Positions 27,040 through 51,245 of a DNA stretch of 64,000 nucleotides are shown here, piece after piece. This DNA comes from a virus. The stretch's first letter is position 1. Each line of letters starts with the position of its first letter. The position numbers and the translations under genes were made by a program. The notes beneath the pieces are model-generated. The model saw only the letters and a list, made by a program, of their open reading frames with translations. It had not been told where the DNA came from and did not search any database. The stretch lies in IMG/VR virus record IMGVR_UViG_3300037516_001783, positions 1 to 64,000 of that record; one strand, 5' to 3'.

Positions 27040-27714
27040 CTAATAACTTGACGCTTGAGGATTTACTTCAAACATTTTCACCAATTTGTGTCTCATAACT
27101 TCAGATACTGTACTTTCATAGAAGAAACTTACTGATATGTTTCTGTTGTAGACATTCTGTGGTAACAAATCAGTGTTCAGTTGTAAATCTTGACCAGAAA
27201 TCTTTGGTTGTCTTAAACCCATATTTTCAAAATGTTCAAATATAGCAAACATGAAATTTTTCAAAACATGGTAAATTAAAACAACTTCAGAACTGTTATC
27301 TGAAGTGATTAACATATTGTAATTTGAATCAAAAACATTTGTGAAATTTCTTTTGTATTCACCTTCATCTCCAAAAATGTTATACTGTTTATAACCTTCA
27401 CCCATACCTATGCCAACCTCACCACTAGTTTCAGAAGGTAGTAAAATATGAATTGTTGGTAATCCTTTTCTTTCTGTATTGTATCCTACATTAACAGTCA
27501 ACTTCCTAGATTCATCTTCATTTTTCAAGAATAAATTTTTACCTTGTTCATAGTAACTAAATTTATTCATTGTTATTTCCATACCATTGTCATCTTGAAA
27601 AAGGAACTCATGTAATACAGAATTCTTTTCATCTGCTTGACTTTCGAAATCAGATTTTATTAAATCTAAAATAGTCTTTACTGTATAGTGTAATATTACT
27701 TCTGGAATTAACAT
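27040..27714 (-). CDS. Tail terminator / neck protein
   Basis: P.IHILLPSE, I.S.N..EV..IY..LK, Y.RNI motifs; position before the sheath. Confidence 0.6.
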   Translation of the reverse strand: MLIPEVILHYTVKTILDLIKSDFESQADEKNSVLHEFLFQDDNGMEITMNKFSYYEQGKNLFLKNEDESRKLTVNVGYNTERKGLPTIHILLPSETSGEVGIGMGEGYKQYNIFGDEGEYKRNFTNVFDSNYNMLITSDNSSEVVLIYHVLKNFMFAIFEHFENMGLRQPKISGQDLQLNTDLLPQNVYNRNISVSFFYESTVSEVMRHKLVKMFEVNPQASSY

Positions 27715-28133
27715 AATAAATTATTAAAGGCTTTTTCTAATTGTGAAAATATGGTTGACATATGCTTATCATCTTCATGATAAGATTCTTTATTAGCAAT
27801 GTTTGTTTTTGAAAAGTTTATATTAAACTGATGTATCCTATCTAATCTAAACAATCTCCAATACGGTACTGCTTGGCTCTTACTTACACCTTCATTTAGG
27901 TATGCTCTCAGAATCAAATTTTCAGTACTTCTGTGAATACCGAAAGCCACAGGAGTTATACTTCTATAACCGTTAAGAACTACTCCAGCATCTTCATTTT
28001 CTTCATATAAAATATCCATTTTGAACTTATTATTAATACAATAATTTATTGTATCGTTTAAATTCATAATGTTTTTAATCCTTGGTAATCTCTTAATCCT
28101 TACATTACCAGATATGTCTTTAAATCTACTCAT
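27708..28133 (-). CDS. Stand-alone WYL-domain protein with a C-terminal EKAFNNLL tag
   Basis: I.Y ... R.I.P.AFG ... LRAY ... WRLFRLDRI is the WYL signature. Confidence 0.8.
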   Translation of the reverse strand: MSRFKDISGNVRIKRLPRIKNIMNLNDTINYCINNKFKMDILYEENEDAGVVLNGYRSITPVAFGIHRSTENLILRAYLNEGVSKSQAVPYWRLFRLDRIHQFNINFSKTNIANKESYHEDDKHMSTIFSQLEKAFNNLLC

Positions 28134-34847: not shown

Positions 34848-35702
34848 TTACTTTATCATCTTTTCATTAGTTTCATATTCTTCAGACTTTTCATCTTTTT
34901 TAGGTTTCATAACCTTACCATCCTCATCTTTGATTTTAAAATCACTAAATCCTCCAAGTTCATCTGCGATTGCTTTAGCACTTCTTGACTCTCCTTTTTT
35001 ATTTACCCAATGACCTTCACCCTTACATGTGTAAGAATAACCACCACCTGAAACAACACTTCCTCTACCAGCTTCCAACAATTGGTCTTTTATTTTTTCA
35101 TAATGACCTTTCACTTGCACCTCACCTTTAGATTGTTCTTTTACACCTTCTGGTTTATGAAAATCTACTTTTAAAGGAGATTTATCGTGTCTCTTACCAT
35201 TCTTATCTTTTAACTGTAGATAACCATCATGTTTGATGTTATGAATGGTATGTTCTTCACCTTTGTAGTTTATTTTATCTCCAGGAATTACTTCTCTTAA
35301 ATGTTCTTTTTCATCTTGGTGAGGAGTTCCAGGTTTTTTCCAAACAACTTGGTGATTACCTTTCTTATTGATTATATGGGTCAACACCAACCCATTTCCA
35401 CCGTGGAAAGCTTTTTCAATAAAAGAGTGTAAAGCCTTTTCTATCTCAGACTTTTCTTCTTCCTCTTCGTCAAGTTCTTCACCCTCTTCACTTTCCTCTT
35501 CCTCAGATTCAACTTGTTTTTTACCACCTTTCAAAAGTTCGATAGTCTTCAAAGATTTTTGTAAATCCTCTTCTGTTATCAAACCTTTGTCAAAATTACT
35601 CTTTAAAGTAATTTCCATTTCCTCAAATGAAGGTTGTTTTTTAGAAAAACTTTTTTCTAAAACAGTCCCTTTATAATTATCCTCAGTTACAAAATTATAC
35701 AT
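34848..35702 (-). CDS. Putative internal head protein (leader A + acidic tract + shared hairpin/SH3-like module)
   Basis: Residues 1-60 are paralogous to the 323-aa protein; residues ~87-185 are nearly identical to part of the 423-aa protein. Confidence 0.65.
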   Translation of the reverse strand: MYNFVTEDNYKGTVLEKSFSKKQPSFEEMEITLKSNFDKGLITEEDLQKSLKTIELLKGGKKQVESEEEESEEGEELDEEEEEKSEIEKALHSFIEKAFHGGNGLVLTHIINKKGNHQVVWKKPGTPHQDEKEHLREVIPGDKINYKGEEHTIHNIKHDGYLQLKDKNGKRHDKSPLKVDFHKPEGVKEQSKGEVQVKGHYEKIKDQLLEAGRGSVVSGGGYSYTCKGEGHWVNKKGESRSAKAIADELGGFSDFKIKDEDGKVMKPKKDEKSEEYETNEKMIK

Positions 35703-35723
35703 ATAGCAGTCTTTATTTTCTTA

Positions 35724-35903
35724 TTAGTTGTTTTTCTTCTTACCTTTGTAAGATTCATAGATTGAATTAAAAACATAAGCACCAACCCAATAAATAAAAG
35801 CTACAATAAATAGCCAAGGTTGTTTTTCTGTTGTTAAACCTGTGATATACAAGATTGTAGCCAATGCAAAAATTGCCACAGTAATGATTGAATGTTTAAG
35901 CAT
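35724..35903 (-). CDS. Small 2-TM membrane protein (59 aa, below the ORF-track cutoff)
   Basis: Hand translation: MLKHSIITVAIFALATILYITGLTTEKQPWLFIVAFIYWVGAYVFNSIYESYKGKKKNN. Confidence 0.55.
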   Translation of the reverse strand: MLKHSIITVAIFALATILYITGLTTEKQPWLFIVAFIYWVGAYVFNSIYESYKGKKKNN

Positions 35904-36271
35904 ATAAGTATAATTAATAGTGAAATTCTTACTTGAAATTGATAAGGAATCATACTCCAGAATGTATCTATTGGTCCACTTCCTAAATGTTCTTTTGGTT
36001 TACCTCTTAAGTAATTTAGTAATGTATCAAATAGAAAACCGTATGACAATAATAATGATATGAATAACAAAAGATTGTAAGGTTTTACACTATTTGTTAC
36101 AACAATACAAATAGAAACAGTCAACCATGAAGTTGCTACTTTGTACTTTCCCTTTAAATCTATTTCATGTTCTTCTATAAGTAGGTAGTCACAAAATGCT
36201 CTACCTACTATAAAAAGAATGAAGCAACCTAAATTTAGGAATAAGTGTAATATGATATGAAGTGTTTGCAT
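35834..36271 (-). CDS. Multi-pass membrane protein
   Basis: About four hydrophobic segments; FD.LLN.LRGK...HLG...ID motif. Confidence 0.6.
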   Translation of the reverse strand: MQTLHIILHLFLNLGCFILFIVGRAFCDYLLIEEHEIDLKGKYKVATSWLTVSICIVVTNSVKPYNLLLFISLLLSYGFLFDTLLNYLRGKPKEHLGSGPIDTFWSMIPYQFQVRISLLIILICLNIQSLLWQFLHWLQSCISQV

Positions 36272-37501
36272 TTACTCTTTAGTTGGTAATTTGAAAATCA
36301 TTTCAAGGTCAGTAGTTCTACCTTTCCCACCCTTATCATCTTGCCATTCATAAACTTCACCTCTACCTTTAGAATCCAAGGTAGCACCAAACATTTCTTT
36401 CATAACATTCTCTATTTTAGAGAGGTCATTACCTTTAGGTCTACTCCAAGAATCAGATTGGTCTGATATTCTTAATTTTATATTATCACCTTCAACTGAA
36501 ACTCTACCCCAAGGGTCACCATTAGATTCATATTTATGTTGAGACAATCCAGCACGAATTATTCTTTCTGCTGCCCTATCACCACCTAATTGAATAGCTT
36601 CATCCAAAGCTTCTTTTGTTACAGGTTCACCATGGTCAACTCTGTGTTTATCAAATAATTTTTCTAACTTCTGTTTCTTTTCAATTTCAGGGTCAGGTTT
36701 TTCTAATTTTTTAGATTGTTGTTTTTGGTAATCTTCTATAGAAAGGAATGAGCCAAAATATGCATCACTATCCATTTTTCTGTATTCATTTACAGAACCA
36801 TCATTGTTGTAAACTCTTACAACTTTAAGGTCACCAAGACCACCACTTTGTGTTTTTACAGAAACAAGTTGTCCCTTTTTTAATTGAATAACACCTGTCT
36901 CACCTTTACCTCCATTTAGTGGTGCTGTACTCCATTTGAAATCAACATCTTTAGTTAATATTCTTGGGCTGTAATCATATTTGTTGAAAGCAACATCTCT
37001 CATTGCTCTGTCAATAGCAACTTGGTTAGGTTCAACAGATTCTACTTTAGGAGTTACACTTTCTACAGATTCTTTTCCATCTTCATCATGACCAACTAAC
37101 TCATCTTCTTCAACTTCCTTACCTTTAACATCCTCAGGTTTTTGGAACTCAACTTTTAAAGGTGATTTATCATGACGTTTTCCGTTTTTATCTTTTAACT
37201 GAAGGTAACCGTCGTGTTTTACAGCATGAACTGTATGTTCTTCACCCTTATAATTGATTTTGTCTCCTGGAAGCACTTCTCTCAAGTGTTCCTTTTCGTC
37301 ATGATGTACACCACCAACTTTTTTCCAAACAACTTGATGTTTGTTATTTTTGTTAATAATGTGCGTAAGGACTAATCCGTCCCCACCATGAAAAGCTTTT
37401 TCTATAAATGAGTGTAAAGCTTTTTCAATATTTTTATCTGAATTGATAATATTATCACCAATAGGTGAATTATCGTAGTGTTCTGGTGTGATGATTTCCA
37501 T
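36272..37501 (-). CDS. Putative internal head protein (shared hairpin/SH3-like module + unique C-terminus)
   Basis: Probable ATG 37501 (MEIITPEHY); IEKALHSFIEKAFHGG...VVWKK...PGDKINYKGEEH...HDKSPLKV. Confidence 0.65.
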   Translation of the reverse strand: MEIITPEHYDNSPIGDNIINSDKNIEKALHSFIEKAFHGGDGLVLTHIINKNNKHQVVWKKVGGVHHDEKEHLREVLPGDKINYKGEEHTVHAVKHDGYLQLKDKNGKRHDKSPLKVEFQKPEDVKGKEVEEDELVGHDEDGKESVESVTPKVESVEPNQVAIDRAMRDVAFNKYDYSPRILTKDVDFKWSTAPLNGGKGETGVIQLKKGQLVSVKTQSGGLGDLKVVRVYNNDGSVNEYRKMDSDAYFGSFLSIEDYQKQQSKKLEKPDPEIEKKQKLEKLFDKHRVDHGEPVTKEALDEAIQLGGDRAAERIIRAGLSQHKYESNGDPWGRVSVEGDNIKLRISDQSDSWSRPKGNDLSKIENVMKEMFGATLDSKGRGEVYEWQDDKGGKGRTTDLEMIFKLPTKE

Positions 37502-37527
37502 GGTGAATTTTGGTGATTTAAAATAAA

Positions 37528-37567
37528 AAACAACAACTAACAATTCAAACTATGTTAGTTGTTGTTT
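37528..37567 (-). terminator. Intrinsic terminator
   Basis: AAACAACAACTAACA ... TGTTAGTTGTTGTTT 15-bp inverted repeat. Confidence 0.7.
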
Positions 37568-37574
37568 AATTTTA

Positions 37575-38546
37575 TTAAGCAAATTTTTTGAAATCTAAAC
37601 CGTGGTGTTTTGCTAATTTCTTAGCTTTATCCCAATGAAATTTTGATTTAGCTTTTGAATCATGGTCAGTTTCACCGTAATTCTCTTTATGTGCTTCAGC
37701 ATTATCAGCATGGTTATATGAATGGTTGACATGGGATTCAATTAATTCAGAAGCCTTTTCTTTAGACAAAGATTTTTCCTCATCAGATGGTTCTGTTTTA
37801 GAATCCATTTCTTTCTTCTTATTTGAAGCAGTTTCTTTTGTTTTAGAAATTTGTTCTGGTGTTTGAGACTGACTCTTTTTCTCCTTATTTTTGATAGTCA
37901 TTGCTTTTCTCCAATGGTTATCAGCAGCATCATATAATTTTTGATATTCTGGTGAGTGGCGAGAATGTTCTCCAAATTTAGATTCCATTTCCTTCATTTT
38001 ATCTTCATTCACTTTCTGAGCATCAAGATGGTCTTGTGATGAAAAGTCACTATGGTTTTTTGAAGAAACAGAGTCATAAACATCCTTACCACTTGCTGTT
38101 TTACCTAATTTATTAGTACCAACTTTTCCACCTTCATGGCTTGCTTTAATTTTTTCAAGAGTTTCTTGTCTATCTTTTTTACCTATTTCGTAATGTTTTT
38201 CAAGATGTTTTGAAGCTTCTTCATTTGAATGGTTTCTTCCGTGTGCACCGAAAGCATCATCATGGTCTTTTGAAGTAAAATTAGCATGACTTGGGTGATT
38301 AAACTTATCATAAATTGGTTTACCACTTTTTGTGTGACCAATTACTTTACCACCTCTTGAACCTTCACCACCTTTTAACAAATCAATTGTTTCTAAGGCT
38401 TTGTTGAATTCCTCTTCAGTGATTAATCCTTTTTCAAAATTACTTTTAACAGTAATTTCCATTTCTTGAAAAGTTGGTTGTTTTTTTACAAAACTTTTTT
38501 CCAACACACTACCTCTATAATCTGCTTCTGTTACAAAATTATCCAT
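37575..38546 (-). CDS. Putative internal head protein (leader A + two His-rich G-x-T-x-S-G-K repeats)
   Basis: KVIGHTKSGKPIY..HANFTSKDHDDA and KLGKTASGKDVY..HSDFSSQDHLDA. Confidence 0.65.
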   Translation of the reverse strand: MDNFVTEADYRGSVLEKSFVKKQPTFQEMEITVKSNFEKGLITEEEFNKALETIDLLKGGEGSRGGKVIGHTKSGKPIYDKFNHPSHANFTSKDHDDAFGAHGRNHSNEEASKHLEKHYEIGKKDRQETLEKIKASHEGGKVGTNKLGKTASGKDVYDSVSSKNHSDFSSQDHLDAQKVNEDKMKEMESKFGEHSRHSPEYQKLYDAADNHWRKAMTIKNKEKKSQSQTPEQISKTKETASNKKKEMDSKTEPSDEEKSLSKEKASELIESHVNHSYNHADNAEAHKENYGETDHDSKAKSKFHWDKAKKLAKHHGLDFKKFA

Positions 38547-38551
38547 TGTTA

Positions 38552-38989
38552 TTAATTTATATTTGAAAACTGCTTAGACATTATTGAACCATCCCTTATG
38601 ATTTGCTGTAATAAAGTACTTTCTCTAGGAGTTGTCGGTACTTTCCCATTAGAATTAGCTTTATCTATCAAATTAGTGATAAAATTCTTTGATTCTACCT
38701 GATAAACTCGTCCTCTTAAACCTTTTAAGTATTCTAATGAATATTCTTTACCAACACCATTAAATACTTTCCCCTCACTCTTTTTACAGTTCACACAAGA
38801 TTTATTACATTTGAAGTTTGCTATTAACTTTTCAATCTCACGATTTTCGTTAATACAATCTCTAATTAAATCTAATATGTTATGGTCTTTTGAGGACTTA
38901 TTTTCTTGAATATAATTGTTGTTAAATAACAACCTATCTTGAAGTTCTTTTTTAGACAAACTTTCAAGTGTAAAAAGAGAAACTTGCAT
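38552..38989 (-). CDS. Hypothetical protein in the head-cargo cluster
   Basis: ORF track; CNKSCVNCKKS motif. Confidence 0.5.
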   Translation of the reverse strand: MQVSLFTLESLSKKELQDRLLFNNNYIQENKSSKDHNILDLIRDCINENREIEKLIANFKCNKSCVNCKKSEGKVFNGVGKEYSLEYLKGLRGRVYQVESKNFITNLIDKANSNGKVPTTPRESTLLQQIIRDGSIMSKQFSNIN

Positions 38990-40323
38990 TACTTGATTTC
39001 GTTAAATTTTATGTTGCCAATATGAGCATCATAATACTGTTTTTGAAGATTTTTGTTGTCTTCAATTTCACTTTTTAATTTATCTATTGTTTGTAAATAA
39101 TTTGTTGGTTTTTTTCTCTCTAAAATGTCAATAATATCTAACTTTTCCTTAGTAGAAACCTTAACAGATTTTAAAGCTTTATTCAACAAAATGATTTCAC
39201 TTTCTGATAAATTATGTTGTTTTTCTTTAGTCCTTAAAACATTATCTGGAGTTCTTTCAAGTAATTCTCCAGAAGGAGTCATAACTATAAAGCCGACATT
39301 TGTTTTTCTTATCAATACACCTTTTGACGGAACACCTTTAACAACACCATTTTCATCTTTTTTTCTTATGGTTAAATCAACATGGTCACCTACAGATAAT
39401 ACACCTCCAAGCTTTTTAGAAATTGTTTCTTCAACAGGTTTTTGCTTTTCAAAATCCTTTTTAATTTCTTCAATTTCTTTGTCTCTTTTACCATATCCAG
39501 GAAGTTCCTGTTTATTTATGGTTGTCCAATCACACTTGGTGTCTGTATAGAAATCACCGTTGTCTTGTAAATCTCCAAGTGTTTTGTATTCTCCAGAAGC
39601 GTCATAAAATTTACCATTCACACCCACAGCAACATGAACATCAGGTTCTCCTTCTGAACCGAACGAATGGTAGGTAGGTTTTAAACCTTTCTCTTCAAGT
39701 AGTTTTCCAAAAGCTTCAGCAAATTCATAACAACCACCACTCATGTACCAACCATCTTCCTTACCTTCTTTAAAGGTTTCTACTAAACTATAAGGGTCTA
39801 CACTGATATTAACACTGTTCTTATGTTTTATTTCGTTAAGGTCTCTGAGTACATTTTTAGGTTTTAATTCACCTGTTTTTCTGTCTCTAATTTGAGTTCT
39901 GATATTAGCTTTTACCTTACCATTACTTTCGTCTAATTTACTGAAAGTTCCTTCAACTTCAGTTCCGTCTTGTAATTTTAATAAAACAATATCACCCTTT
40001 TTGTATTTAGAACTAAGTAGTTTGTCTGGATTTATATGTTCTTTTGAATTAACATCTTCAAATGAACCTTTCCTATATTTCTGTTGGAATTTACTTACAT
40101 CAGTCTTATTAGGATTTATCCAATAGGTTTCCATAACAACCTTACCACCTCTAACAATAGGAGTTACAACCTTCTGTAAATGTGCTAAATTTCTCTCAGC
40201 CTTTTCAAGTTCTGAGATTTTACCATATTTGGAACAAACAATTAATGTTTCATAATCTTCATTAGAAATTACTAAATTGTCTAACGAAAGTTGTTTGAAT
40301 TCAGAAGGTTGTAAGAAAATCAT
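38989..40323 (-). CDS. Putative head cargo with KOW/SH3-like domains and a papain/transglutaminase-like Cys-His-Asp domain
   Basis: ELEKA then LQKV...RGGK..ETYWINP; KKGDIV and VGDHV (KOW-like); SGGCYEFA ... VHVAV ... YDASG triad. Confidence 0.6.
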   Translation of the reverse strand: MIFLQPSEFKQLSLDNLVISNEDYETLIVCSKYGKISELEKAERNLAHLQKVVTPIVRGGKVVMETYWINPNKTDVSKFQQKYRKGSFEDVNSKEHINPDKLLSSKYKKGDIVLLKLQDGTEVEGTFSKLDESNGKVKANIRTQIRDRKTGELKPKNVLRDLNEIKHKNSVNISVDPYSLVETFKEGKEDGWYMSGGCYEFAEAFGKLLEEKGLKPTYHSFGSEGEPDVHVAVGVNGKFYDASGEYKTLGDLQDNGDFYTDTKCDWTTINKQELPGYGKRDKEIEEIKKDFEKQKPVEETISKKLGGVLSVGDHVDLTIRKKDENGVVKGVPSKGVLIRKTNVGFIVMTPSGELLERTPDNVLRTKEKQHNLSESEIILLNKALKSVKVSTKEKLDIIDILERKKPTNYLQTIDKLKSEIEDNKNLQKQYYDAHIGNIKFNEIK

Positions 40324-40324
40324 T

Positions 40325-40579
40325 TTAAGAGAATATTGATTGTAAAGCAGTAACCATTAAGAACTTATCATTAGCAGTTGGAGTTGTTATATCCGAAACT
40401 TTAAATTTTAAAGAATCAGATTGTCCAGAAATTGCTGCTATTGGTGAACAACATCTTGTAACTAAGATACAATCTTCGTTTGGATGCGGTAAAACATTTA
40501 CAGTTCCAGATACACCATAAATGACACCATTATCATTTATTGTTACTCTATTCGATGCTTTTGTGAATGTAATTGGCAT
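40325..40579 (-). CDS. Hypothetical protein
   Basis: ORF track. Confidence 0.5.
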   Translation of the reverse strand: MPITFTKASNRVTINDNGVIYGVSGTVNVLPHPNEDCILVTRCCSPIAAISGQSDSLKFKVSDITTPTANDKFLMVTALQSIFS

Positions 40580-40582
40580 AAA

Positions 40583-41110
40583 TTAATTCTCTAAAGTTTG
40601 TACCTGTCTCATTGATAAAATGTACTCTTTATTTTGGTCTAAGTTTTTCAACAAAGTATCAACAATTTTCAATTCACCTTTACAGTTTATCATTCTGTAA
40701 ACAGCTTGATTGTGTGATTTGTAATTGTTTGCCTCAACTTGACCACTGATTGGAGATTTATTTTCACCGAACTGTGGAGCGTTAATTTCATTCCAATAAG
40801 TATATTCATCACCATATACCAATAAACCTTCCAACTCATCACAATCACAGTCTTCGTAATAAGGTTTGATAGAAGGTTGACGTTCTAAAACTCCAGAAAG
40901 TGCTGAAACAACTTGATTACAAGCTGAATATTCACCTTCAAGTTTCATTTTCTTAGCTTCCAAAAGAGAAATAATTTCACTACCCATTTTAGGGAATTTT
41001 AAACTATCGTCATAGATAAAACTTGACATACCTTTTTCAAGTTCATCTTTGTTTGAAAAGCTGTTATAGATATTTCTTCTAGTTTGCTCTATTTTTTGTA
41101 TCGCGTCCAT
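40583..41110 (-). CDS. Hypothetical protein with an ELEKG site near the N-terminus
   Basis: ORF track; NSFSNKDELEKGM. Confidence 0.55.
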   Translation of the reverse strand: MDAIQKIEQTRRNIYNSFSNKDELEKGMSSFIYDDSLKFPKMGSEIISLLEAKKMKLEGEYSACNQVVSALSGVLERQPSIKPYYEDCDCDELEGLLVYGDEYTYWNEINAPQFGENKSPISGQVEANNYKSHNQAVYRMINCKGELKIVDTLLKNLDQNKEYILSMRQVQTLEN

Positions 41111-41116
41111 TACTAC

Positions 41117-43171
41117 TTATTTAAAATTTATATCGTCTTCAATTACACCACCTAATAAATAATCAAATGCCTTTTTGATATTCACTTTCTTTAAACTCTC
41201 AGCATAATAATCTTTCCAATCTTCATATTGGTCTTGAGTTTCTTTTGGTAAATTTCCGAAAGTCATTTTTGCTTCTTTTATGTTACCTAAAGTTCTAACT
41301 TGTAAATCAGATTCTGGTAAGTTCTTTTGGTTCTTAACTAAAACGTCATACAACTCTTTGTTTTGTTCAAAGTTGTCATATCCGTCTCTTAATTTACCAT
41401 CCAACATTGTAGACATAGCATACAGCATTTGTTTTTTATCCAAATCTATATGTATAGGTTTACTTCTACCTTTAAGAGCAGCAGAGTCTTGGCTATCATC
41501 CAAACCTTTATTTGTAATGAAGTTTAACTTACCATGGAAATCAAATTCGTCTGGAATATCTTTAACATTTTCACCTGTTAAATCGGCTATCTTCTTTTTG
41601 AAAGTTGGTGTTATTGTTATCTTTGGAGTTTTACCTTCAAAGTTCTTAAGTAAGTTAATTGTTTTAGGATTAAACAACATACTATCACTGTCATCGAATG
41701 AAAGTAATGTTTTAGAACCCTCTTGTCCTCTATATTTATACAGATATGCAAGGAAATCACCGTAATTGAATCCCGTACCTTTCAATTCAACATAAGAACC
41801 GTTTGGATGCTCTTCTGGGTCGTAAGGTTGGTCTTTATTTATTTTGTCATAACCAAGTTCTCCCAATGCAGCTTTTTCTACATTGTATGATTTACCAACT
41901 CCTGCTTTACCACTAATTATTGTCATTAATTTAGGACTTTCGTCACTCATTAATGTTTTAATACTACCGATAATAGAATGAGCTGTTGAAGTGATTTCTC
42001 TTTTTTGATTATCGTCTAATCCTATACTTTGGTCACCGTTCCAACCAGCACCTGTTTTTGGATTATACTCACCATCCTTTAACTTTTGGATACCAAGTTT
42101 CTTTTTCTCGTCTTCAGAAAGTTTGGAAACGTCTACTTTTTCAGGTTTCTTAGTTTCTTCTTTAACCTTATCACTTTTCGGTTTTTCAGTTTTATCTTCA
42201 GAACCTTCTTTTGGATTTTCAGGTTTACTATCACCTTCTCCTTCAGCACGTTTATCATCAGGTTTAGAATCTTCTGTTTTATTATCAGCTTTTTTGTCAC
42301 CTTCCTTATTTTTATAAGGGTTTCGGTCATCTTCAGAATTTATGTATTCCTCACCTCTTTTAGCTAACTCTTTTTTTGCTGAATCAACTAAAATTCTTGC
42401 CTTTGGATTGTCATGTTCTTTGTCTAAAAAATTCTTTAAATCTTCAGTAGATGACTTTTTAGCATGAGATTCAACTTTTTTGTTATCCTGATAGATAGAA
42501 TGATAATCGTAATCAGAACTCTTGCCCTTTGGATTTTCAACCTTCTTATTAGACGGTTCGTTTGCATTATTATCTTCTTGTTTTGTGGTTTTAACTTCTG
42601 ATTGATTATCGTCATTTTTGACCCACTTTTTCATGTGTCTACCTAGCTTATCAACGATATCTTTGATATGTAGCTTACTCATGTTTAAACCCTTATTAAA
42701 CTCATCTGAATATGGGTTTGGTTGGGTTAAACTTGTAATGCTTTTTTCTAAATCTCTTTGATTAACAAAATCAAAATAATGGCTTAAAATTTCACCTTGA
42801 TTATCTAAGAAGTCAAATTCAGTTAAATCGTCATCACAAATAAGTTCATATTTATCATGTTCAAAATTTAGTATAGCAGATTCAACATCATACTCACCTT
42901 CATTTCTAACTAAAAAGTAATTAACTTCAAAATCTTCTTCACCGTTGTTTTCAATTGTTTTAAACAACAAAGAAATATCATTAGACTTTACATCTATTGA
43001 TATTTCTTCTTTTAATTCTCTTATTGCAGTTTCTATAGGCTCTTCACCGTCTTCAACTAAACCTCCTGGAAGGTTCCAACATAAATCTCCATAAGTTGCT
43101 GTAAAACTCCTTCTTAAAATAAGTACATTGGAATCCCAATCTGGTAAAATGGCTACAGAATATACGTTCAT
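41117..43171 (-). CDS. Nudix hydrolase - disordered linker - AAA+ ATPase fusion (putative head cargo)
   Basis: Nudix box PGGLVEDGEEPIETAIRELKEE; Walker A SGKAGVGKS; Walker B LSFDDSD; ITN; AALKGRS arginine finger; C-terminal IKKAFDYLL; probable ATG 43171. Confidence 0.8.
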   Translation of the reverse strand: MNVYSVAILPDWDSNVLILRRSFTATYGDLCWNLPGGLVEDGEEPIETAIRELKEEISIDVKSNDISLLFKTIENNGEEDFEVNYFLVRNEGEYDVESAILNFEHDKYELICDDDLTEFDFLDNQGEILSHYFDFVNQRDLEKSITSLTQPNPYSDEFNKGLNMSKLHIKDIVDKLGRHMKKWVKNDDNQSEVKTTKQEDNNANEPSNKKVENPKGKSSDYDYHSIYQDNKKVESHAKKSSTEDLKNFLDKEHDNPKARILVDSAKKELAKRGEEYINSEDDRNPYKNKEGDKKADNKTEDSKPDDKRAEGEGDSKPENPKEGSEDKTEKPKSDKVKEETKKPEKVDVSKLSEDEKKKLGIQKLKDGEYNPKTGAGWNGDQSIGLDDNQKREITSTAHSIIGSIKTLMSDESPKLMTIISGKAGVGKSYNVEKAALGELGYDKINKDQPYDPEEHPNGSYVELKGTGFNYGDFLAYLYKYRGQEGSKTLLSFDDSDSMLFNPKTINLLKNFEGKTPKITITPTFKKKIADLTGENVKDIPDEFDFHGKLNFITNKGLDDSQDSAALKGRSKPIHIDLDKKQMLYAMSTMLDGKLRDGYDNFEQNKELYDVLVKNQKNLPESDLQVRTLGNIKEAKMTFGNLPKETQDQYEDWKDYYAESLKKVNIKKAFDYLLGGVIEDDINFK

Positions 43172-43196
43172 TGTTTTATAAAATAACAATAAAAAT

Positions 43197-43205
43197 ATAA
43201 CTGTT
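43197..43205 (-). promoter_or_regulatory. Candidate late promoter AACAGTTAT
   Basis: 26 nt before the probable ATG of the Nudix-AAA gene. Confidence 0.55.
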
Positions 43206-43422
43206 AAGGGTTAATTGGCTTATAACAAGTCTCTGGATTATCGTCAAATTTTCTTATAATATCTACAAAATCAGAGTATTTCATACCATGAACTTTGGAA
43301 AAATCTTCAGCATCCAAATCTTTAGATTTGATGTCAACAAGAAACTTCCAATTCAAATACAAGTCGTACTGATAATCTAAATCAGCCAATAAACCTGTTG
43401 AGTTCTCAAATCCACCTTCCAT
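43204..43422 (-). CDS. Small acidic hypothetical protein
   Basis: ORF track; immediately downstream of the GNAT-like gene. Confidence 0.5.
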   Translation of the reverse strand: MEGGFENSTGLLADLDYQYDLYLNWKFLVDIKSKDLDAEDFSKVHGMKYSDFVDIIRKFDDNPETCYKPINP

Positions 43423-43429
43423 ATCGTAA

Positions 43430-44833
43430 TTAATCTAAATTAAGTTTTTCTTTTGATAACAATTTTTCAAAAGTTTTTCTTTGAATATCATTTGTTAAGT
43501 CTAACTCACCGTCCCAACTTGAACCTGAATTTTTAAAGAAAACATTTTGTTCATGTTTGTTTAATTTTTTAGCTAAAGATTTCAACATGTACCTGTCTCC
43601 AACTTTGTCTAATTCAATTGTACTAACACTGTTATTTATTTTGTCAAGTTGATGTTCAGTTGGGTGGAAATATATTTCATATTTGAATTTTATTTTATCA
43701 CCAACTTGTTTACTATCACCTATCCTTGTTACTTTATAATTAAAACTATCCTCTTCAGAAGGTACATAAGTATCTGAATCTTGATAGTCAAGTTCGTCTT
43801 GGAAAGTATCACCACTCAAATCAGCAGTTTTAACAACCCCATCTTTTGAAATGTACTTAATTTCAGGTTTTTCACCTACCTTATGTTCACAGAAACCTCT
43901 GGCAATTAAAGTTGGTTTTATAGAACCTGAATCATTACTTTTAACAACATATCTGATGAAATTTTCTCTCATCCTTTTAACGTCACTTTCTGAAGCTGAG
44001 AAACCCCAATTCCCCCAAACAGACACACCTGTAAGCACTTCACTTTGTGTTTGTGAATTTGCTTGTACTGAAATTTTCTTAACTCCTAACTCCTTGTATT
44101 TGTCATAAAAGTTAGACATTAACTTTCTAGCAAAGTCAGTATTTCTAAGTGTTTCAGAACAACCAAAACTTGAGTGGTAAACAGAACCATCTGGTCTAAT
44201 TACTCTTGAAATCTGAAAATGTTTTGGTTGGCTAAAACCAAACTCATCAGTTGAAGCAGAATCCTCAGACATGTGAACTCTTATTGTTCCGTCAGAATCA
44301 CAAAAGAACCTTTTGTCAGAAACATTTCTTCCATTAGTGTTAGGAATGTAACTATCTATCAATTCATTACAACCTTTATAAAGGTCTGCTATATCATGAC
44401 CTTCCCAATGTTTGTTAAAATTGTTAATAGAAGTTTGGTCTGATTCAACCCTTACATTTTTTAACTTCTCTAATGTAAGTTCTGGTTTTTTAACACCGTA
44501 AGCTTCATCTGTAATTCTATCAACTTGCTTTAACACTTCTTCCTTTTTAAATTGGAAGCTGTTACCTTTCTCAACCTGTTTTAATGAATGTGATATTACA
44601 GATTGCTGGTGAAAATATTCAGCTTTTTTCAATAACTTTTTAGCCAATTCTTTTTCAGTTGAAGATAACATTTTATCTTCATTTACAGCATTAATATCTC
44701 TAATTTTTACATAAATTATGTGAGAATTTTTATCAAGTTTTTGTTGATATTCAGGATTCCCCTTCTTATGTATATTTTGTAATCCACCTTTGACAATTAC
44801 ACTGTCAAAGGCTTTTTTCAATTCATCTTGCAT
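43430..44833 (-). CDS. Putative head cargo with a GNAT-like acetyltransferase domain
   Basis: N-terminal ELKKAFDSVIVKG; VYHSSF....LRNTDFARKLM...Y.ELGVKKISVQA...G..VW..WGF resembles a GNAT fold. Confidence 0.55.
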   Translation of the reverse strand: MQDELKKAFDSVIVKGGLQNIHKKGNPEYQQKLDKNSHIIYVKIRDINAVNEDKMLSSTEKELAKKLLKKAEYFHQQSVISHSLKQVEKGNSFQFKKEEVLKQVDRITDEAYGVKKPELTLEKLKNVRVESDQTSINNFNKHWEGHDIADLYKGCNELIDSYIPNTNGRNVSDKRFFCDSDGTIRVHMSEDSASTDEFGFSQPKHFQISRVIRPDGSVYHSSFGCSETLRNTDFARKLMSNFYDKYKELGVKKISVQANSQTQSEVLTGVSVWGNWGFSASESDVKRMRENFIRYVVKSNDSGSIKPTLIARGFCEHKVGEKPEIKYISKDGVVKTADLSGDTFQDELDYQDSDTYVPSEEDSFNYKVTRIGDSKQVGDKIKFKYEIYFHPTEHQLDKINNSVSTIELDKVGDRYMLKSLAKKLNKHEQNVFFKNSGSSWDGELDLTNDIQRKTFEKLLSKEKLNLD

Positions 44834-44834
44834 A

Positions 44835-47057
44835 TTATAATATTAATGAGTTAAATGCTTTTTCTATATCAACGTCTACAATGAATAAACTTCCCGAATC
44901 CAATGATTTCATTAATTTTTTAACAACATTTTCTTCGTTACCATTTTCACTCCTAAAGAAGTGCATACATTTAATAACACCTTCTTCGTTCTTGTAAGAA
45001 TTCTTAATTTTGTCTATGTTTTTAGCCATAAAATTAAGAGCATCTTTGTATTCACTGTAAGTGTAGTTCTGTCCTTTTAGGTTTGTAAATCCAATACCTA
45101 ATTGTTCTCTTTTATTTATAAGATATTTAGAACGCTCTATAAAGGTATCAGGAGTTTCCTTTATATTTGCTAACATACTTCTTGATTGAATTGGCTGTGG
45201 AGCATTATCTAATGAAGAAGTGATAAAAACACACTTACCTTTGAATTGGAATTTTTCTGGTAAGTCGTTTGGGTGAGTTATGCTTTTTGGGTCAACCTTT
45301 CCAGACTCTTCGTCAGTTTCATATTTCCAACCACCTTGTCTAAGAGCGTCACCATAAGCACCGTTATCTTCAAAGTCAGAAGGTTTAAAATCAGGTTTAT
45401 AACGACCTGTATTAACACTTGTCAACCAAGCAACTTCACCATCACCAGATGTATCTAATGCTCCTTTTAACAAACCTTGACCAAGATTGCTTTCTAAAAC
45501 CTTATCAGCAGAGTTGTCAAAAACAATTGTCTTAAAGTTATGTTTAAACAAAGTTTCGTATAATGATTTCTCTGTTAAACCACCTCCTGCTGAGGAAATA
45601 ACAACATATTGATTACTTACAGGTTCCTCACCATCTTCAGGTTCGTATTCTAAGTTTTGTTGTTTCTGTAATGTACAAACTTCATGAGAATTTTGCATAC
45701 CTTTTTGTTTTAAGTAGGTAGTAACATTATTCGCATTTGTATCAGCAACAACAGCACATTTAACTTGGTTTCCTGTTACCATATCTAAAGAGTTGTAAAA
45801 CGAATCAAAGTTTTCAACTATAGACATTTCAGGCTTATCTTTCAATAAAATCTTATCAGCTTCAACCTCCCATTTCATCCCCTTTTTAGAGAAGAAATCT
45901 CTGATAGCATTACACTTTGTTAAAGTTCTACCACTTAACTCCTCTAAATTTCTCCAATTTTTAGCAAAGTAATTAGCAATACTTTCTTTCTCCTCATCTG
46001 TAACTTCTACTTTATTACCTAATGCGTCTTGGAATTTTAGAGAACTGTTAATCTTACCATAATTAGGATTCTCGATTCCGTTAATCATTTTCCTACCATC
46101 ATGTAAGATTTTATCATTTAACAGGTCCCAAGTTTCCTTTTTAGTTAATCGTAAGTTTAAGTTATCAGAATTTGTTAAAATCCTTTGGAAATTTTCAGCT
46201 TTTGGTCCATGTTTTTCAGCTTGTTTATCTAAATTCACATTAGATATTAACATAACACTACCATCGAAGTCAAATCTTGGAGGAACACCATCAGAAGTTT
46301 TCTCATGTACATTACCACTTTTAGGGTTTGTAAGAGTTACACTTCCTGTGTTAGAAGATATTGAGGTTAAAATATTCAACATGGCTGGGTCATCAAAAAC
46401 CATATCAAAATCATCCAAAATAATCTTCTTATCTTTATTGTTATAAAGCATTTCAAAGAAACCTCCGGGAGTTGTACCACCTGTGAACTTTACAACATCA
46501 CCATTTTCAAGACCTTCTTTGATTTTTGTATTTTGTAATACAGTAAAAGTTTTACCAACACCACCTGAACCTGAAGCAATAGAAAGTCTAAGAGATTTAT
46601 CATCAGCAAAATTTGATACCATTTTCTCCCACTCAATCATCCTTTCAGCTGGAGAGCCATAAATATCATAATCTAAACCACCTTCATCTTCATCAGAAAC
46701 AACTTTTTTCTCACTTGGTTTAACTTCACCTTCTGGTGTAATTGGTGCACTACCTTCACCGTCATGAGGGAATACTAATTTGTTAGGTGATTTGTCATGA
46801 CGTCTTCCTGTTTGGTCTTTCAACTTAACATATCCGTCATCTTTAACACCAACAATTGTATGTTCTTCACCGTTGTATAAAGCAACATCACCTTCTTTAA
46901 CATGTAAATGTTCGTCAGTAACTTCATCCTTTTTTACCCAAGTTAATCTCTTGTGGATTCCATGAGCACCATGAACAAGTATAAATTTTGGAACCAACTT
47001 ACCACCGTGTGATAAGTCTGCAGCCTTCTCTATGTCTGTTTCTAAATTATTTAACAT
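44835..47057 (-). CDS. Putative head cargo: SH3-like module + tandem AAA+ domains (second degenerate)
   Basis: DIEKA at the N-terminus; EGD...YNGEEH...DGY..LKD..G.RHDKSP; SGSGGVGKT, IILDDFD, FDFDGSVMLISN; second unit LYETLF..IVFD..LLKGALD..FQFKGKCVFIT..IQSRS; C-terminal DIEKAFNSLIL. Confidence 0.75.
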   Translation of the reverse strand: MLNNLETDIEKAADLSHGGKLVPKFILVHGAHGIHKRLTWVKKDEVTDEHLHVKEGDVALYNGEEHTIVGVKDDGYVKLKDQTGRRHDKSPNKLVFPHDGEGSAPITPEGEVKPSEKKVVSDEDEGGLDYDIYGSPAERMIEWEKMVSNFADDKSLRLSIASGSGGVGKTFTVLQNTKIKEGLENGDVVKFTGGTTPGGFFEMLYNNKDKKIILDDFDMVFDDPAMLNILTSISSNTGSVTLTNPKSGNVHEKTSDGVPPRFDFDGSVMLISNVNLDKQAEKHGPKAENFQRILTNSDNLNLRLTKKETWDLLNDKILHDGRKMINGIENPNYGKINSSLKFQDALGNKVEVTDEEKESIANYFAKNWRNLEELSGRTLTKCNAIRDFFSKKGMKWEVEADKILLKDKPEMSIVENFDSFYNSLDMVTGNQVKCAVVADTNANNVTTYLKQKGMQNSHEVCTLQKQQNLEYEPEDGEEPVSNQYVVISSAGGGLTEKSLYETLFKHNFKTIVFDNSADKVLESNLGQGLLKGALDTSGDGEVAWLTSVNTGRYKPDFKPSDFEDNGAYGDALRQGGWKYETDEESGKVDPKSITHPNDLPEKFQFKGKCVFITSSLDNAPQPIQSRSMLANIKETPDTFIERSKYLINKREQLGIGFTNLKGQNYTYSEYKDALNFMAKNIDKIKNSYKNEEGVIKCMHFFRSENGNEENVVKKLMKSLDSGSLFIVDVDIEKAFNSLIL

Positions 47058-47071
47058 TACCTTATATTTTA

Positions 47072-48637
47072 TTATTCAAACGGATTCTCACTATCATCTG
47101 TTGGCATATCAGAATAATCTTCTTCACCATCTTCAGGTTGTACTTCACCACCTTCTTGTTCACCACCCATACCCATTTGTTGTGCAGCCATTTTGAATTG
47201 TGAGTAAGTACTTGACATAACATTATCTGCAGCTGGGTCTTTAATTTTTGGATAACCAAGTTCTTCTCTAACTTCATTTAAAGTTGCAAAGTTGGTTACT
47301 TTCTTAACTGCCATATCCAATTCCTCTGACTGACTTAATGCATCTATTCCAACGAACGATAAATAATAATCCTTATCTAATTGGTTTACCACATATTTAT
47401 TTAGTCTGGAAGCTATGAATTTTAAAAGTGGGTATAAACCTTTGTCCTTACTATGTTTTAATTTACCTTCATTATTACTTTCAAATAATGCTCTGTTTTC
47501 AGCTCCACCACTTTGTGAGAAACCTATTTCTTCTGGAGATATACAGTAAATTGCACAAGCTGTTTTGATAAGGTAATCTTGCCAAGCCTTAAACTCCATG
47601 TCTTTATTGGCAGTTTGAAGGTTGATGAATTCCATCTTTCCAGCTTCCATAACAGGAGTCTTCCAAGCATTATGAACTCCAGAAACCATTGCTTGCCACT
47701 GTTGTTTAAATTCTTGGATTTTTGCTGGTGAAACTGAACCGTCTACACGAATAATACCTTTAGGTGCTGAACCTTGTGAGAAGAATCTTCTGTTATACTC
47801 ATCTGACCATAACATAGAAGTTATTGTTGTTACAAGTTCTTCAAGTTCTGAAACTCCGTAACCAAAATTATGAATATCACTTTCTGGATTTCTAACACCA
47901 AAACATAATTCCCAAGGATAAAAATCTGCTACAACCTGACCATTGTCTACTTGACAAAATGACGGATAATAACCTTTGATTTTTTCTTTGTTTTGGTTTT
48001 GATAACTATCATCATCAACACTATCAGATATCCTAAAAGTAGATGCGTCTGTGGCAATGAATTCTATTGGTAAACCTTTTCTGTTGTAAATAACCTCAAA
48101 AGTCAATTGGTCAAAAACTAATGAATCTCTTGTTACTTTTCTTATGAAACTGTCAAAATCATCTGCTTCCCAAGAGTTGTTTGTACCACAATTCAAAATA
48201 AATTGCGTTATTTCATCAACCCTAGCTTGTTCTGCTTTTGTTAATTTTGAGTTTTCCTTACCTCTTTTTAAAATCTTAAATCCTGTACTGAATTTATCCT
48301 TCTGAGGTTCAGCAAATGCGGCAACTTGATTTACCCTTGTCTTAATAATAGCACTAATAACAGGAACTCTTGCCATACGTTTTAAATTGTCGTATGACAT
48401 CCCCATAGCTTTATCCTTGTAACCTAAAGAAGTTGCAAAATCTAATGGGTCAATTAATATAGATTTTCTATCAGAAAGTTCTCTGTTCTCTATGTATTTA
48501 CTTGCGATTGCTTGTGCTTTTACTAACTCATTTGGGTCTGTAGAAGATAGTGCACTGCCAACCAAAGACATTTTCTTAGCTAATATCTTTTCCTCTAAAG
48601 TATTTAAGATGTTTATTTTTTCTATTCTACCCATCAC
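47072..48637 (-). CDS. Portal protein (Herelleviridae-like)
   Basis: AII.TR.NQV..F, RD.L..DQ..FE, VRNP..D....GYG.SELE, YN.RFFSQG..PKGI, DMEF..W..YLI...CAIY.I.P.EI, SK.KGL.PLL.FI, T.NE.R. Confidence 0.92.
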   Translation of the reverse strand: MMGRIEKINILNTLEEKILAKKMSLVGSALSSTDPNELVKAQAIASKYIENRELSDRKSILIDPLDFATSLGYKDKAMGMSYDNLKRMARVPVISAIIKTRVNQVAAFAEPQKDKFSTGFKILKRGKENSKLTKAEQARVDEITQFILNCGTNNSWEADDFDSFIRKVTRDSLVFDQLTFEVIYNRKGLPIEFIATDASTFRISDSVDDDSYQNQNKEKIKGYYPSFCQVDNGQVVADFYPWELCFGVRNPESDIHNFGYGVSELEELVTTITSMLWSDEYNRRFFSQGSAPKGIIRVDGSVSPAKIQEFKQQWQAMVSGVHNAWKTPVMEAGKMEFINLQTANKDMEFKAWQDYLIKTACAIYCISPEEIGFSQSGGAENRALFESNNEGKLKHSKDKGLYPLLKFIASRLNKYVVNQLDKDYYLSFVGIDALSQSEELDMAVKKVTNFATLNEVREELGYPKIKDPAADNVMSSTYSQFKMAAQQMGMGGEQEGGEVQPEDGEEDYSDMPTDDSENPFE

Positions 48638-48708: not shown

Positions 48709-48740
48709 ATTAAGGGATGTTAATAACAACACCCCTTAAT
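48709..48740 (-). terminator. Probable intrinsic terminator
   Basis: ATTAAGGG ... CCCTTAAT inverted repeat after the 163-aa gene. Confidence 0.55.
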
Positions 48741-50207: not shown

Positions 50208-51245
50208 TTAATAAAGTAAGAATGAGTTGTCTCTTTCACCAACATTTATTTTTGACCTTTGTTTACCAACACCAACTTTCATTTTCCAATACTTTTGGTA
50301 TTCACATAACATCATTTCTATATTGTGTAATGTAAGTTCACCTGTTTCAGAAACTTCATATACCTTTTTAACCTTGTTCCAAGTTGTATATTTAAAATCT
50401 TCAACTTGTTCGTTAAACATGTCTCTTAGTAAACCTATGCCACCAATTATTTCCTTTTCTTGTAAGCTTGGAAAAATTAATCTCAACCCAACTTTACATC
50501 CTGGACCGACATTGGTGAAATCATTTTGGTCAAATTTGAACTTGAAATTCTTACAGTAAATTGTTATGTAAGTTAAGTCTTGATATAATTCATGACTAAC
50601 AAAATGTGAAACAGAAGATATCGTTTCAAAACATTTTATCAATGGTTTTACATCATTTCCTTTAGCAAGAGTTTCTATTTTACTTAACAACGAAATCATC
50701 TTTGGGATAACCTTATTACAGAAATGCCAATCTCTTGTATGACCTATAGAACCTACGCTGTTTGTACAGTATGCATTTGTAAAAGGATTCCCACCAGACA
50801 TCCTAAATTCCTTCAAAAGTTCTTCAAAAACAATTGGGTCATATTCTTCTGGTGTTGGGATACCTCTGTATGGAGAGTTCTTAATTAACCAAGAAAACAA
50901 CAAATTGTTGTTAAAGAATTTAAAGAAGAACATGTAATAATACAACAACTTTATATCATCATTTGCATACGTAATTGCAGAACCTTTTAAATTTTTAGTA
51001 TCAAAAGGTATCATTATTTTACTAATCAAGAATTGACTTTCCCTGTCTAATTCCCTGTAAACATTTGTGAATTTGTTGTTTAATAGAATTTGGTCTTTAG
51101 TCCAAGGTTTTGGTTCTTTTAAAAACCTTTTGAACCAAATATCTTGCCTCTCTTTAACTACGTAGAAAAATTCTTCTAAATTCTCTTGACAGACATCTAA
51201 ATCTTCTGAAGGCAAGAACTTCTCAAATGTATGAGGTTTTTTCAT
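50208..51245 (-). CDS. aGPT-Pplase1 / 5hmdU-DNA kinase helical-domain protein (thymidine hypermodification)
   Basis: ERQ.IW..R....PWT.D.IL...KFTNVYRELDR, F...ELY.DL.Y, VGPG...GL, IE..LCEY.KY.K. Confidence 0.8.
   Translation of the reverse strand: MKKPHTFEKFLPSEDLDVCQENLEEFFYVVKERQDIWFKRFLKEPKPWTKDQILLNNKFTNVYRELDRESQFLISKIMIPFDTKNLKGSAITYANDDIKLLYYYMFFFKFFNNNLLFSWLIKNSPYRGIPTPEEYDPIVFEELLKEFRMSGGNPFTNAYCTNSVGSIGHTRDWHFCNKVIPKMISLLSKIETLAKGNDVKPLIKCFETISSVSHFVSHELYQDLTYITIYCKNFKFKFDQNDFTNVGPGCKVGLRLIFPSLQEKEIIGGIGLLRDMFNEQVEDFKYTTWNKVKKVYEVSETGELTLHNIEMMLCEYQKYWKMKVGVGKQRSKINVGERDNSFLLY

Follow-up and report, generated by a model that had tools for sequence, protein, structure and literature searches.

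Predicted head-internal proteins sharing a Lys-directed code with the capsid leader and scaffold in a variable gene array of an SPO1-like phage

The stretch of DNA analyzed here (the window) covers positions 1 to 64,000 of IMG/VR virus record IMGVR_UViG_3300037516_001783, a single contig with a length of 107,935 bp. Between the genes for the portal and for a protease-scaffold fusion, it contains an array of twelve open reading frames (ORFs) of at least 72 amino acids (aa), all on the minus strand (positions 34848-47057); the major capsid protein (MCP) gene follows the fusion. The capsid leader, the scaffold and most of the array proteins share a motif that supports a single code, in which a putative cut follows Lys and precedes a small residue. 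On balance, the array appears to encode head-internal proteins, either cargo or core, that are processed by the prohead protease. The layout itself, described in an earlier note on this DNA as about 12 co-oriented genes that part the portal from the protease, was confirmed by the ORFs and by matches to phrog_12, phrog_1028 and phrog_752.

A Lys motif common to the array, the capsid leader and the scaffold

Expected motif counts were obtained from per-protein shuffles that preserve the composition of each protein; in the motifs given below, h is a hydrophobic residue and a slash marks the predicted cut after Lys. The motif [LIVFM]EK[SAG] was observed 14 times in the array compared with 1.8 expected occurrences (z 9.4). 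In the rest of the genome (28,045 residues) it was found 13 times, for which 10.1 were expected (z 0.9). A composition-corrected enrichment test had been proposed in the earlier note, and each of the motif strings listed there was found in the protein to which it had been assigned. Counting the sites of paralogous array proteins once leaves ~10 independent sites versus ~1.7 expected (Poisson p 1e-5). In the pattern h-x-P1-[SAG]-h, Lys at P1 shows a 3.0-fold excess in the head block versus 1.24-fold elsewhere, and Ala and Gly are the preferred residues at P1'. An N-proximal h-[polar]-K-[SAG] site, located within the first 50 aa, is present in 7 of the 11 array proteins versus 7 of 106 others (Fisher p 2e-5).

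The phage is a member of a large clade of SPO1-like phages, most of them uncultured. Its MCP shows 46% identity to those of the Bacteroides thetaiotaomicron phages DAC16-23 and SJC03, 42% to that of Chryseobacterium phage MA9V-3, and 35-37% to those of Herelleviridae of the SPO1/SP-10 type (tblastn). The hosts of the clade are probably Bacteroidota, since the nearest cultured phages infect Bacteroides and Chryseobacterium. A portal profile search of IMG/VR revealed at least 167 related stretches, 80 of which were fetched, with many loci spanning only 10 kb; complete relatives are 94-124 kb long, several of them with terminal repeats. The G+C content of the window is ~31%, and almost all of its genes are on the minus strand. 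A megablast comparison of the 12-kb array with phage records gave zero matches.

The scaffold part of the protease fusion contains 14 h-x-K-[SAG] sites compared with 2.7 expected, and scaffolds of relatives contain 21 (MA9V-3), 17 (the complete genome G003), 19 (G006) and between 17 and 19 (DAC19). The MCP leader ends in LNK/A in this phage and in the related locus L006, and in LQK/A in MA9V-3 and DAC19. That the array motif is common to the probable capsid maturation site and the scaffold, as had been claimed earlier, was thus borne out by the site listing together with the shuffle counts. In the GenBank record of phage A511, the mature capsid protein Cps is annotated from residue 24, after ALK/SF (Lys23), in agreement with the earlier statement that it is matured at a Lys-Ser bond. 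The portals of this phage and of its relatives also carry an N-proximal site, at aa 26-42. Within the protease domain, residues H65, S123 and E125 are invariant in 10 relatives, which fits a serine prohead protease. No Pfam model was found for this domain, a profile of 10 protease sequences found nothing in the PDB, and PDB sequence searches with the 740-aa array protein and the protease-scaffold fusion gave nothing useful.

Shared modules, terminal tags and payload domains

BLAST comparisons within the genome revealed that several array proteins have parts in common. A 61-aa leader with four sites shows 72% identity between the 284- and 323-aa proteins. The 284- and 423-aa proteins also share a second module, referred to here as the W module, at 75% identity; the N-terminus of the 740-aa protein matches it at 44%. 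A P-loop domain is common to the 690- and 740-aa proteins. Because the module copies are only 70-77% identical at the DNA level, they represent diverged paralogues and not fresh duplicates. Across the clade, the leader has the consensus ...YKG[ST]xhEK/[GS]F ... hEK/[AS]L..NFEK/GL ... hDhhK/AG, with three or four sites.

A search of 1.84 billion cluster representatives with a W-module profile retrieved only ~20 proteins, 240-789 aa in length, in which the module starts no later than residue ~65, apart from P0004, where it starts at residue 160 behind a longer leader. Their C-terminal parts are mutually unrelated and include leucine-rich repeat (LRR)-like repeats, tandem P-loop domains, His-rich repeats and Lys-rich coiled coils. 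The K-[AG] junction in front of the module is conserved: in a 20-sequence alignment (21-50% identity), every sequence has Lys directly before the module, and at least 90% continue with Ala. The plug-and-play system of interchangeable leaders envisaged in the earlier note therefore stands in part. The modules are truly shuffled, as seen in the BLAST module map, in a domain insertion and in exchanged payloads, but the conserved vehicle consists of the leader plus a folded W module, and it is the C-terminal payloads that vary.

An AlphaFold2 model of the 284-aa protein, based on the 20-sequence alignment, has a mean predicted local distance difference test (pLDDT) score of 78. It begins with a helical leader and an acidic linker that is disordered, followed by a helix that stops exactly at IEK/A (aa 98) and by a beta-hairpin plus five-stranded barrel with pLDDT >90. 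The sites had been placed at domain boundaries; in the model this is the case for the last leader site, at the junction of the helix and the beta module, but most leader sites are located inside helices. The barrel resembles SH3, KOW and Tudor domains (Foldseek E at or above 7e-3; VIA Z 5.3-6.7), a generic fold match that names no family, and the W module has no sequence match in Pfam, PHROGs or the PDB. The 444- and 690-aa proteins also have a hairpin behind their last site, in the shorter form h-h-D-K-x-G-[KR]-H-x-x-K-W-[VI]-K-N; in the linker of the latter protein, which contains the sites LEK/S (aa 147) and FNK/G (aa 164), this basic W-type hairpin reads IVDKLGRHMKKWVKN. In word-based searches for homologues, the W module and the 444- and 467-aa proteins each gave just 1-3 relatives. 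The W module, composed of a basic hairpin and an SH3-like barrel, is apparently an undescribed element.

A further element, K-[AS]-F-[DNQE]-x-h-h (the KAF tag), occurs four times in the genome compared with 0.4 expected, in all cases at or near a terminus: at the C-terminus of the 740-aa protein (IEK/AFNSLIL), near the C-terminus of the 690-aa protein, at the N-terminus of the 467-aa protein, and at the C-terminus of a 141-aa ORF that sits between two conserved genes of the neck/tail block. The 740-aa orthologues P0009 and P0020 retain both ends, including the C-terminal tag, which is also retained in a third orthologue, the 779-aa protein of L006. The tag peptide is the usual portal C-terminus in the clade as well: about 46 related portals (among L009-L087) carry it behind NPF-x-K, as K/[AS]F[DNE]xF[LMI] with a short acidic tail. 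The portals of this phage (...ENPFE, window 47072-47130) and of L006 (...NPFKNE) both stop just before the tag Lys. They are naturally truncated at the predicted cut, consistent with a mature portal that has lost its tail or can do without it. As for its role, the tag could be a docking peptide, a cleavage site, or both. In the form K/AF[DN]xLhh it is apparently another undescribed element, and it was absent from the reading given in the earlier note. P0004 (532 aa, encoded on a 112-kb contig) has a 190-aa leader with a LPDGSFPIRNKQDLLDAIKSVGRAKD segment, five K/[SAG] sites and an internal copy of the tag, ELKK/AFDAIEN.

Searches of the array proteins against Pfam, PHROGs and NCBIfam yielded nothing above threshold except Nudix and phrog_1250. 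The Nudix payload, already recognized earlier, scores 46.5 bits against PF00293 (cut-off 21.1) and has the catalytic residues: its box reads G-LVEDG-E-EPIETAI-RE-L-K-EE-I-S-I, in which the acidic and Arg positions are all present and the last Gly is replaced by Ser. In all three phages with this domain (this phage, L006 and MA9V-3), the linker behind it holds a site in the alignment. The domains previously called AAA+ ATPases are indeed P-loop NTPases with Walker A and B motifs, but they are better named T4 NrdC.10-like, given that they match NrdC.10 genes of T4-like phages by tblastn; nothing on the function of NrdC.10 was found in the literature. In the 740-aa protein, the first such domain has GSGGVGKT and ILDDFD as its Walker A and B motifs, and the second is degenerate and lacks GK[ST] with the Walker Lys; the corresponding motifs of the 690-aa protein are GKAGVGKS and LLSFDD.

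The structural neighbors of the 467-aa protein in the ESM Atlas are GNATs, including GNAT-MuF fusions, with TM scores of 0.43-0.45 and no Pfam match, so that a GNAT-like C-terminal half is suggested as a lead only. The 444-aa protein has a P0007-like backbone (alignment with P0006 and P0007) into which a 120-aa Cys/His domain is inserted; the insert shows 89% identity to the C-terminus of an unrelated 628-aa protein. The single-sequence fold of the 444-aa protein reached a pLDDT of 41 and its match to the YunG-like family PF24591 (E 2.5e-4) is below the cut-off, which leaves its earlier papain-like label unconfirmed. The repeat of the 323-aa protein, G-x-T-x-SGK-x-[IV]-Y ... F-[ST]-S-x-DH-x-DA, recurs behind the W modules of P0022 and P0024. 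Phage_Mu_F (PF04233) was not found in the array proteins by Pfam at E <= 0.01, nor did PHROGs or Pfam give any match to the phiKZ-like protease or E-protein families.

The genes of the head block and the tagged ORF of the neck/tail block are listed in Table 1. Internal ATG codons are the probable starts of the 423-aa ORF (residue 15) and the 690-aa ORF (residue 7). The multi-pass membrane protein is unlikely to be cargo. A scan of the head block for promoters and terminators found no excess over shuffles, with the exception of one hairpin: a structure with a 14-bp stem just upstream of the portal gene (48709-48740, minus strand), which is the sole strong terminator-like structure on the coding strand of the head block, with none inside the array. 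Farther upstream, a gene at 50208-51245 (minus strand) encodes a 5-hmdU DNA kinase helical domain (PF18723, 2.6e-43) and has a 5'-3' exonuclease as its neighbor; it is kept in 59 related loci and suggests hypermodified thymidine in the phage DNA.

Table 1. Head-block genes and one tagged neck/tail-block ORF, in window positions (slash, predicted cut)
Feature	Position	Strand	Matches and sequence features
Portal, 521 aa	47072..48637	-	phrog_12 1e-55, PF04860; site ELVK/AQ at aa 38-41; C-terminal end ...ENPFE, where relatives run on with K/[AS]F..NL
740-aa protein	44835..47057	-	phrog_1250 7e-35 over two stretches; 9-aa leader to IEK/A, W module aa 5-102, two NrdC.10-like P-loop domains, C-terminal IEK/AFNSLIL
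467-aa protein	43430..44833	-	N-terminal LKK/AFDSVIVK/GG (tag at N-terminal end); GNAT-like C-terminal half (structural lead only)
72-aa ORF	43204..43422	-	No motif, no family match
690-aa protein	41117..43189 (probable start 43171)	-	Nudix PF00293 4.6e-12; then linker, W-type hairpin, charged linker, P-loop domain, IKK/AFDYLL
175-aa protein	40583..41110	-	ELEK/G at aa 24; homologues upstream of portal in relatives
84-aa beta-rich protein	40325..40579	-	FTK/A at aa 5; L006 homologue directly before protease
444-aa protein	38989..40323	-	Leader to ELEK/A (aa 39), W-type hairpin, SH3-like segments, Cys/His insert aa ~174-294
145-aa ORF	38552..38989	-	Single internal IDK/A; no family match
323-aa protein	37575..38546	-	61-aa leader (LEK/S, FEK/G, FNK/A, LLK/G), then two His-rich repeats
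423-aa ORF	36272..37543 (probable start 37501)	-	Short leader to IEK/A...FIEK/A, W module, C-terminal domain with no recognized fold
145-aa multi-pass membrane protein	35834..36271	-	0 motif sites; no homologue in related loci
284-aa chimera	34848..35702	-	Leader aa 1-61, acidic linker, helix to IEK/A aa 98, W module aa ~100-186, small C-terminal domain
Protease-scaffold fusion, 537 aa	32991..34604	-	phrog_1028 4e-47 over aa 1-162; protease aa 1-165; C-terminal MEK/GITLQ
MCP, 495 aa	31487..32974	-	phrog_752 3e-77; probable maturation site LNK/A after residue 29
141-aa ORF, neck/tail block	27708..28133	-	C-terminal LEK/AFNNLLC; no PHROG match; no G006 equivalent

Variation among relatives and rival explanations

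The portal and protease genes are separated by 12.2 kb in this phage and by ~100 nt in A511. Nine of the 80 fetched loci have a gap of 4.8-8.3 kb (in the others, no protease was found within the ~10 kb fetched downstream); it amounts to 10.2, 10.5, 14.1 and 17.4 kb in four complete genomes, to 13 kb in MA9V-3 and to 5.4 kb in DAC19. Because the gaps are large across loci and complete genomes alike, a variable block beside the portal is a clade-wide feature. The head module is split in G002 (the IMG/VR contig of L028, 123,871 bp), where portal and protease genes share a strand but are ~34 kb apart. In DAC19, a tRNA-Lys gene lies inside the portal-protease array (L001 16806-16879). Comparison with related phages, which had been suggested as a check on payload turnover, revealed the portal in 84 loci versus each array protein in only 1-11, a turnover that short loci somewhat inflate.

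The motif enrichment was replicated in G003 (portal 51% identical), whose array proteins are not homologous to those described here: 11 sites were observed compared with 2.5 expected (z 5.2), and 16 compared with 11.9 in the rest. The control motifs hxR[SAG], hxE[SAG] and hxK[DEN] showed no enrichment in relatives. The position between portal and protease that was originally assigned to the array applies to this phage and to G003, but in relatives such genes are found on either side of the portal; in G006, the motif-rich proteins with N-proximal sites are encoded just upstream of it. The genes upstream of the portal in the 80 loci were used as a negative control, which failed, array-type genes being present there too.

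Since their motif also marks the capsid leader and the scaffold, the array proteins are probably cut and carried in the capsid. We infer cleavage, packaging and release into the host as follows. Precursors would enter the assembling prohead by means of the leader, and perhaps also of the KAF tag. The serine prohead protease of the phage would then cut between hydrophobic-x-Lys and Ser, Ala or Gly, often with a hydrophobic residue next. By the same code, the 29-residue capsid leader would be removed and the scaffold shredded at ~14 sites, and the ends of the portal would probably be trimmed as well. Each array protein would lose a helical N-terminal leader, 9-98 aa in length and with 1-6 sites, and on most cargo the last cut would expose the W module. 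This module would remain part of the mature protein and probably serve as its anchor, with DNA, the inner capsid or the portal as the partner. The K/AF[DN]xLhh peptide may act as a second signal for docking or cleavage. The domains behind the W module would be the variable part (Nudix, P-loop NTPases, a GNAT-like domain, a Cys/His domain and His-rich repeats). The mature proteins would stay with the DNA, and some or all of them may leave with it at infection.

Several observations weigh against this interpretation. The KAF tag is also present on the 141-aa ORF of the neck/tail block, which is normally beyond the reach of a prohead protease, and one of the array genes codes for a membrane protein. 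The pattern h-x-K-small-h is somewhat favored by amphipathic helices in any case. When aligned, the Lys at the A511 Cps cut is located 6 residues downstream of Lys29 of this phage, in the same region but in a different column. The portal-protease interval of G006 is not enriched (1 site compared with 0.7 expected). Both portal flanks are enriched in the 80 loci (2.9x and 2.4x), because homologues of array genes sit on either side, so that the class cannot be defined by position alone. DAC19 has its P-loop homologue outside the head block. No virion proteome for the clade was found in the literature, and the MA9V-3 paper contains no such data.

The motif evidence is identical for an alternative in which the array proteins form a protease-processed prohead core or inner body that serves assembly or DNA organization and is not delivered to the host, with their enzyme-like domains being structural or acting within the capsid. 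Such a core would be consistent with the SH3/KOW-like barrel of the W module, a fold that often binds nucleic acid, and with the resemblance of the W-module paralogues to the paralogous inner-body proteins of phiKZ-like phages (PMC10052503). Core proteins are normally conserved, however, whereas the array proteins occur in only 1-11 of >80 loci, and the payloads are typical effector domains, among them a Nudix with its catalytic residues, GNAT-like, P-loop and LRR domains. We consider an undelivered core unlikely.

If, instead, the block were a hypervariable island of non-virion accessory genes, for example for anti-defence or host takeover, the Lys motif would reflect a habit of helices or a docking motif and not a cut site. 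The enrichment of both portal flanks in relatives, its lack in the G006 interval and the tagged neck-block ORF would all suit an island, as would the presence in the array of a membrane protein and of an NrdC.10-like domain, whose T4 homologue is located in the nrdC region. The T4 nrdC region is early and non-structural. Yet in four divergent phages the scaffolds are full of the identical motif and the MCP leader bears it, the Lys of the junction is kept in every sequence even though the leader around it varies, the rest of the genome shows no enrichment, and neither do hxR[SAG], hxE[SAG] and hxK[DEN]; with these observations, an island of this kind seems quite improbable. An artefact of paralogy and of a Lys/Glu-rich composition could account for the sites duplicated among the 284-, 323-, 423- and 740-aa paralogues, but the shuffles preserve composition, the excess persists after the collapse of paralogues, and it recurs in the non-homologous array proteins of G003. 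This explanation is largely refuted, and we give it hardly any weight.

In its fullest form, the interpretation as processed head-internal proteins would mean that this clade of Bacteroidota myoviruses, including the DAC phages and MA9V-3, loads rapidly exchanged enzymes into its heads by means of a Lys site, a conserved helical leader and a clade-specific W anchor, together with a K/AF..L tag shared with the portal tail, and delivers them with the DNA. We put this forward only tentatively. If the code is real, the capsid cargo of a widespread group of Bacteroidota phages, and probably the proteins that they inject, could be read by rule from their genomes. Protease-coupled cargo loading, so far shown mainly in T4 and in phiKZ-like jumbo phages, would be extended to SPO1-like heads with a Lys-specific protease. 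If delivery is true as well, the sequence by itself could predict the repertoire of injected effectors of gut Bacteroides phages, and fusion to a leader-W cassette could allow foreign proteins to be loaded. Early host takeover and counter-defence are candidate functions of the payloads (Nudix, NrdC.10-like NTPases, GNAT-like and LRR domains). The code can be tested now on cultured relatives that infect Bacteroides thetaiotaomicron and Chryseobacterium.

Comparison with known internal-protein systems

Among the closest parallels is phage T4, in which the internal proteins IPI-III and Alt carry a capsid targeting sequence processed by gp21. In a passage of PMC10052503 that cites Mullaney and Black 1996, unrelated proteins are described as able to ride on this leader. 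Common to both systems (in the present case by sequence only) is a short leader ending in the consensus of the protease that also matures the capsid and degrades the scaffold. The predicted cut is after Lys here, whereas T4 cuts after Glu (L/I-x-E), and hxE[SAG] is unenriched in the present system. Unlike that of T4, the protease belongs to phrog_1028 and is fused to the scaffold, the leaders are longer and contain multiple sites, the W module would be retained, and a hypervariable block of ~5 to 17 kb is located beside the portal. The array thus appears to work like the T4 system without being a member of it, because P1 is Lys and the protease is phrog_1028.

In the phages phiKZ, 201phi2-1 and SPN3US, with proteases of the gp175/gp245 type, paralogous ejection and inner-body proteins of the head have multi-site N-terminal propeptides and are packaged with the DNA, and the portal and protease have propeptides too; the propeptides are documented for SPN3US (PMC10052503). 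At the sequence level, the array resembles them in the four-site leaders of the 284- and 323-aa proteins and in the W-module paralogues of 284, 423 and 740 aa. These are jumbo phages that cut after Glu, in contrast to the present phage of 108 kb with its SPO1-like head module and Lys code. The Herelleviridae (A511, SPO1, phage K) have homologous MCP, portal and protease genes in the same order of portal, protease-scaffold and MCP. In A511, however, the portal and protease genes are adjacent, whereas 12 kb of variable genes separate them here, and the likely hosts of the present clade are Bacteroidota. Effectors fused to MuF (SPP1 gp7-like) proteins likewise combine a head-internal carrier with swappable enzymatic C-terminal domains, but in the array the putative carrier consists of a leader plus the W module, and protease processing is implied. 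The array therefore apparently represents a Lys-code version of the internal-protein principle of T4 and phiKZ/SPN3US, with the W module and the KAF tag as elements that appear to be undescribed.

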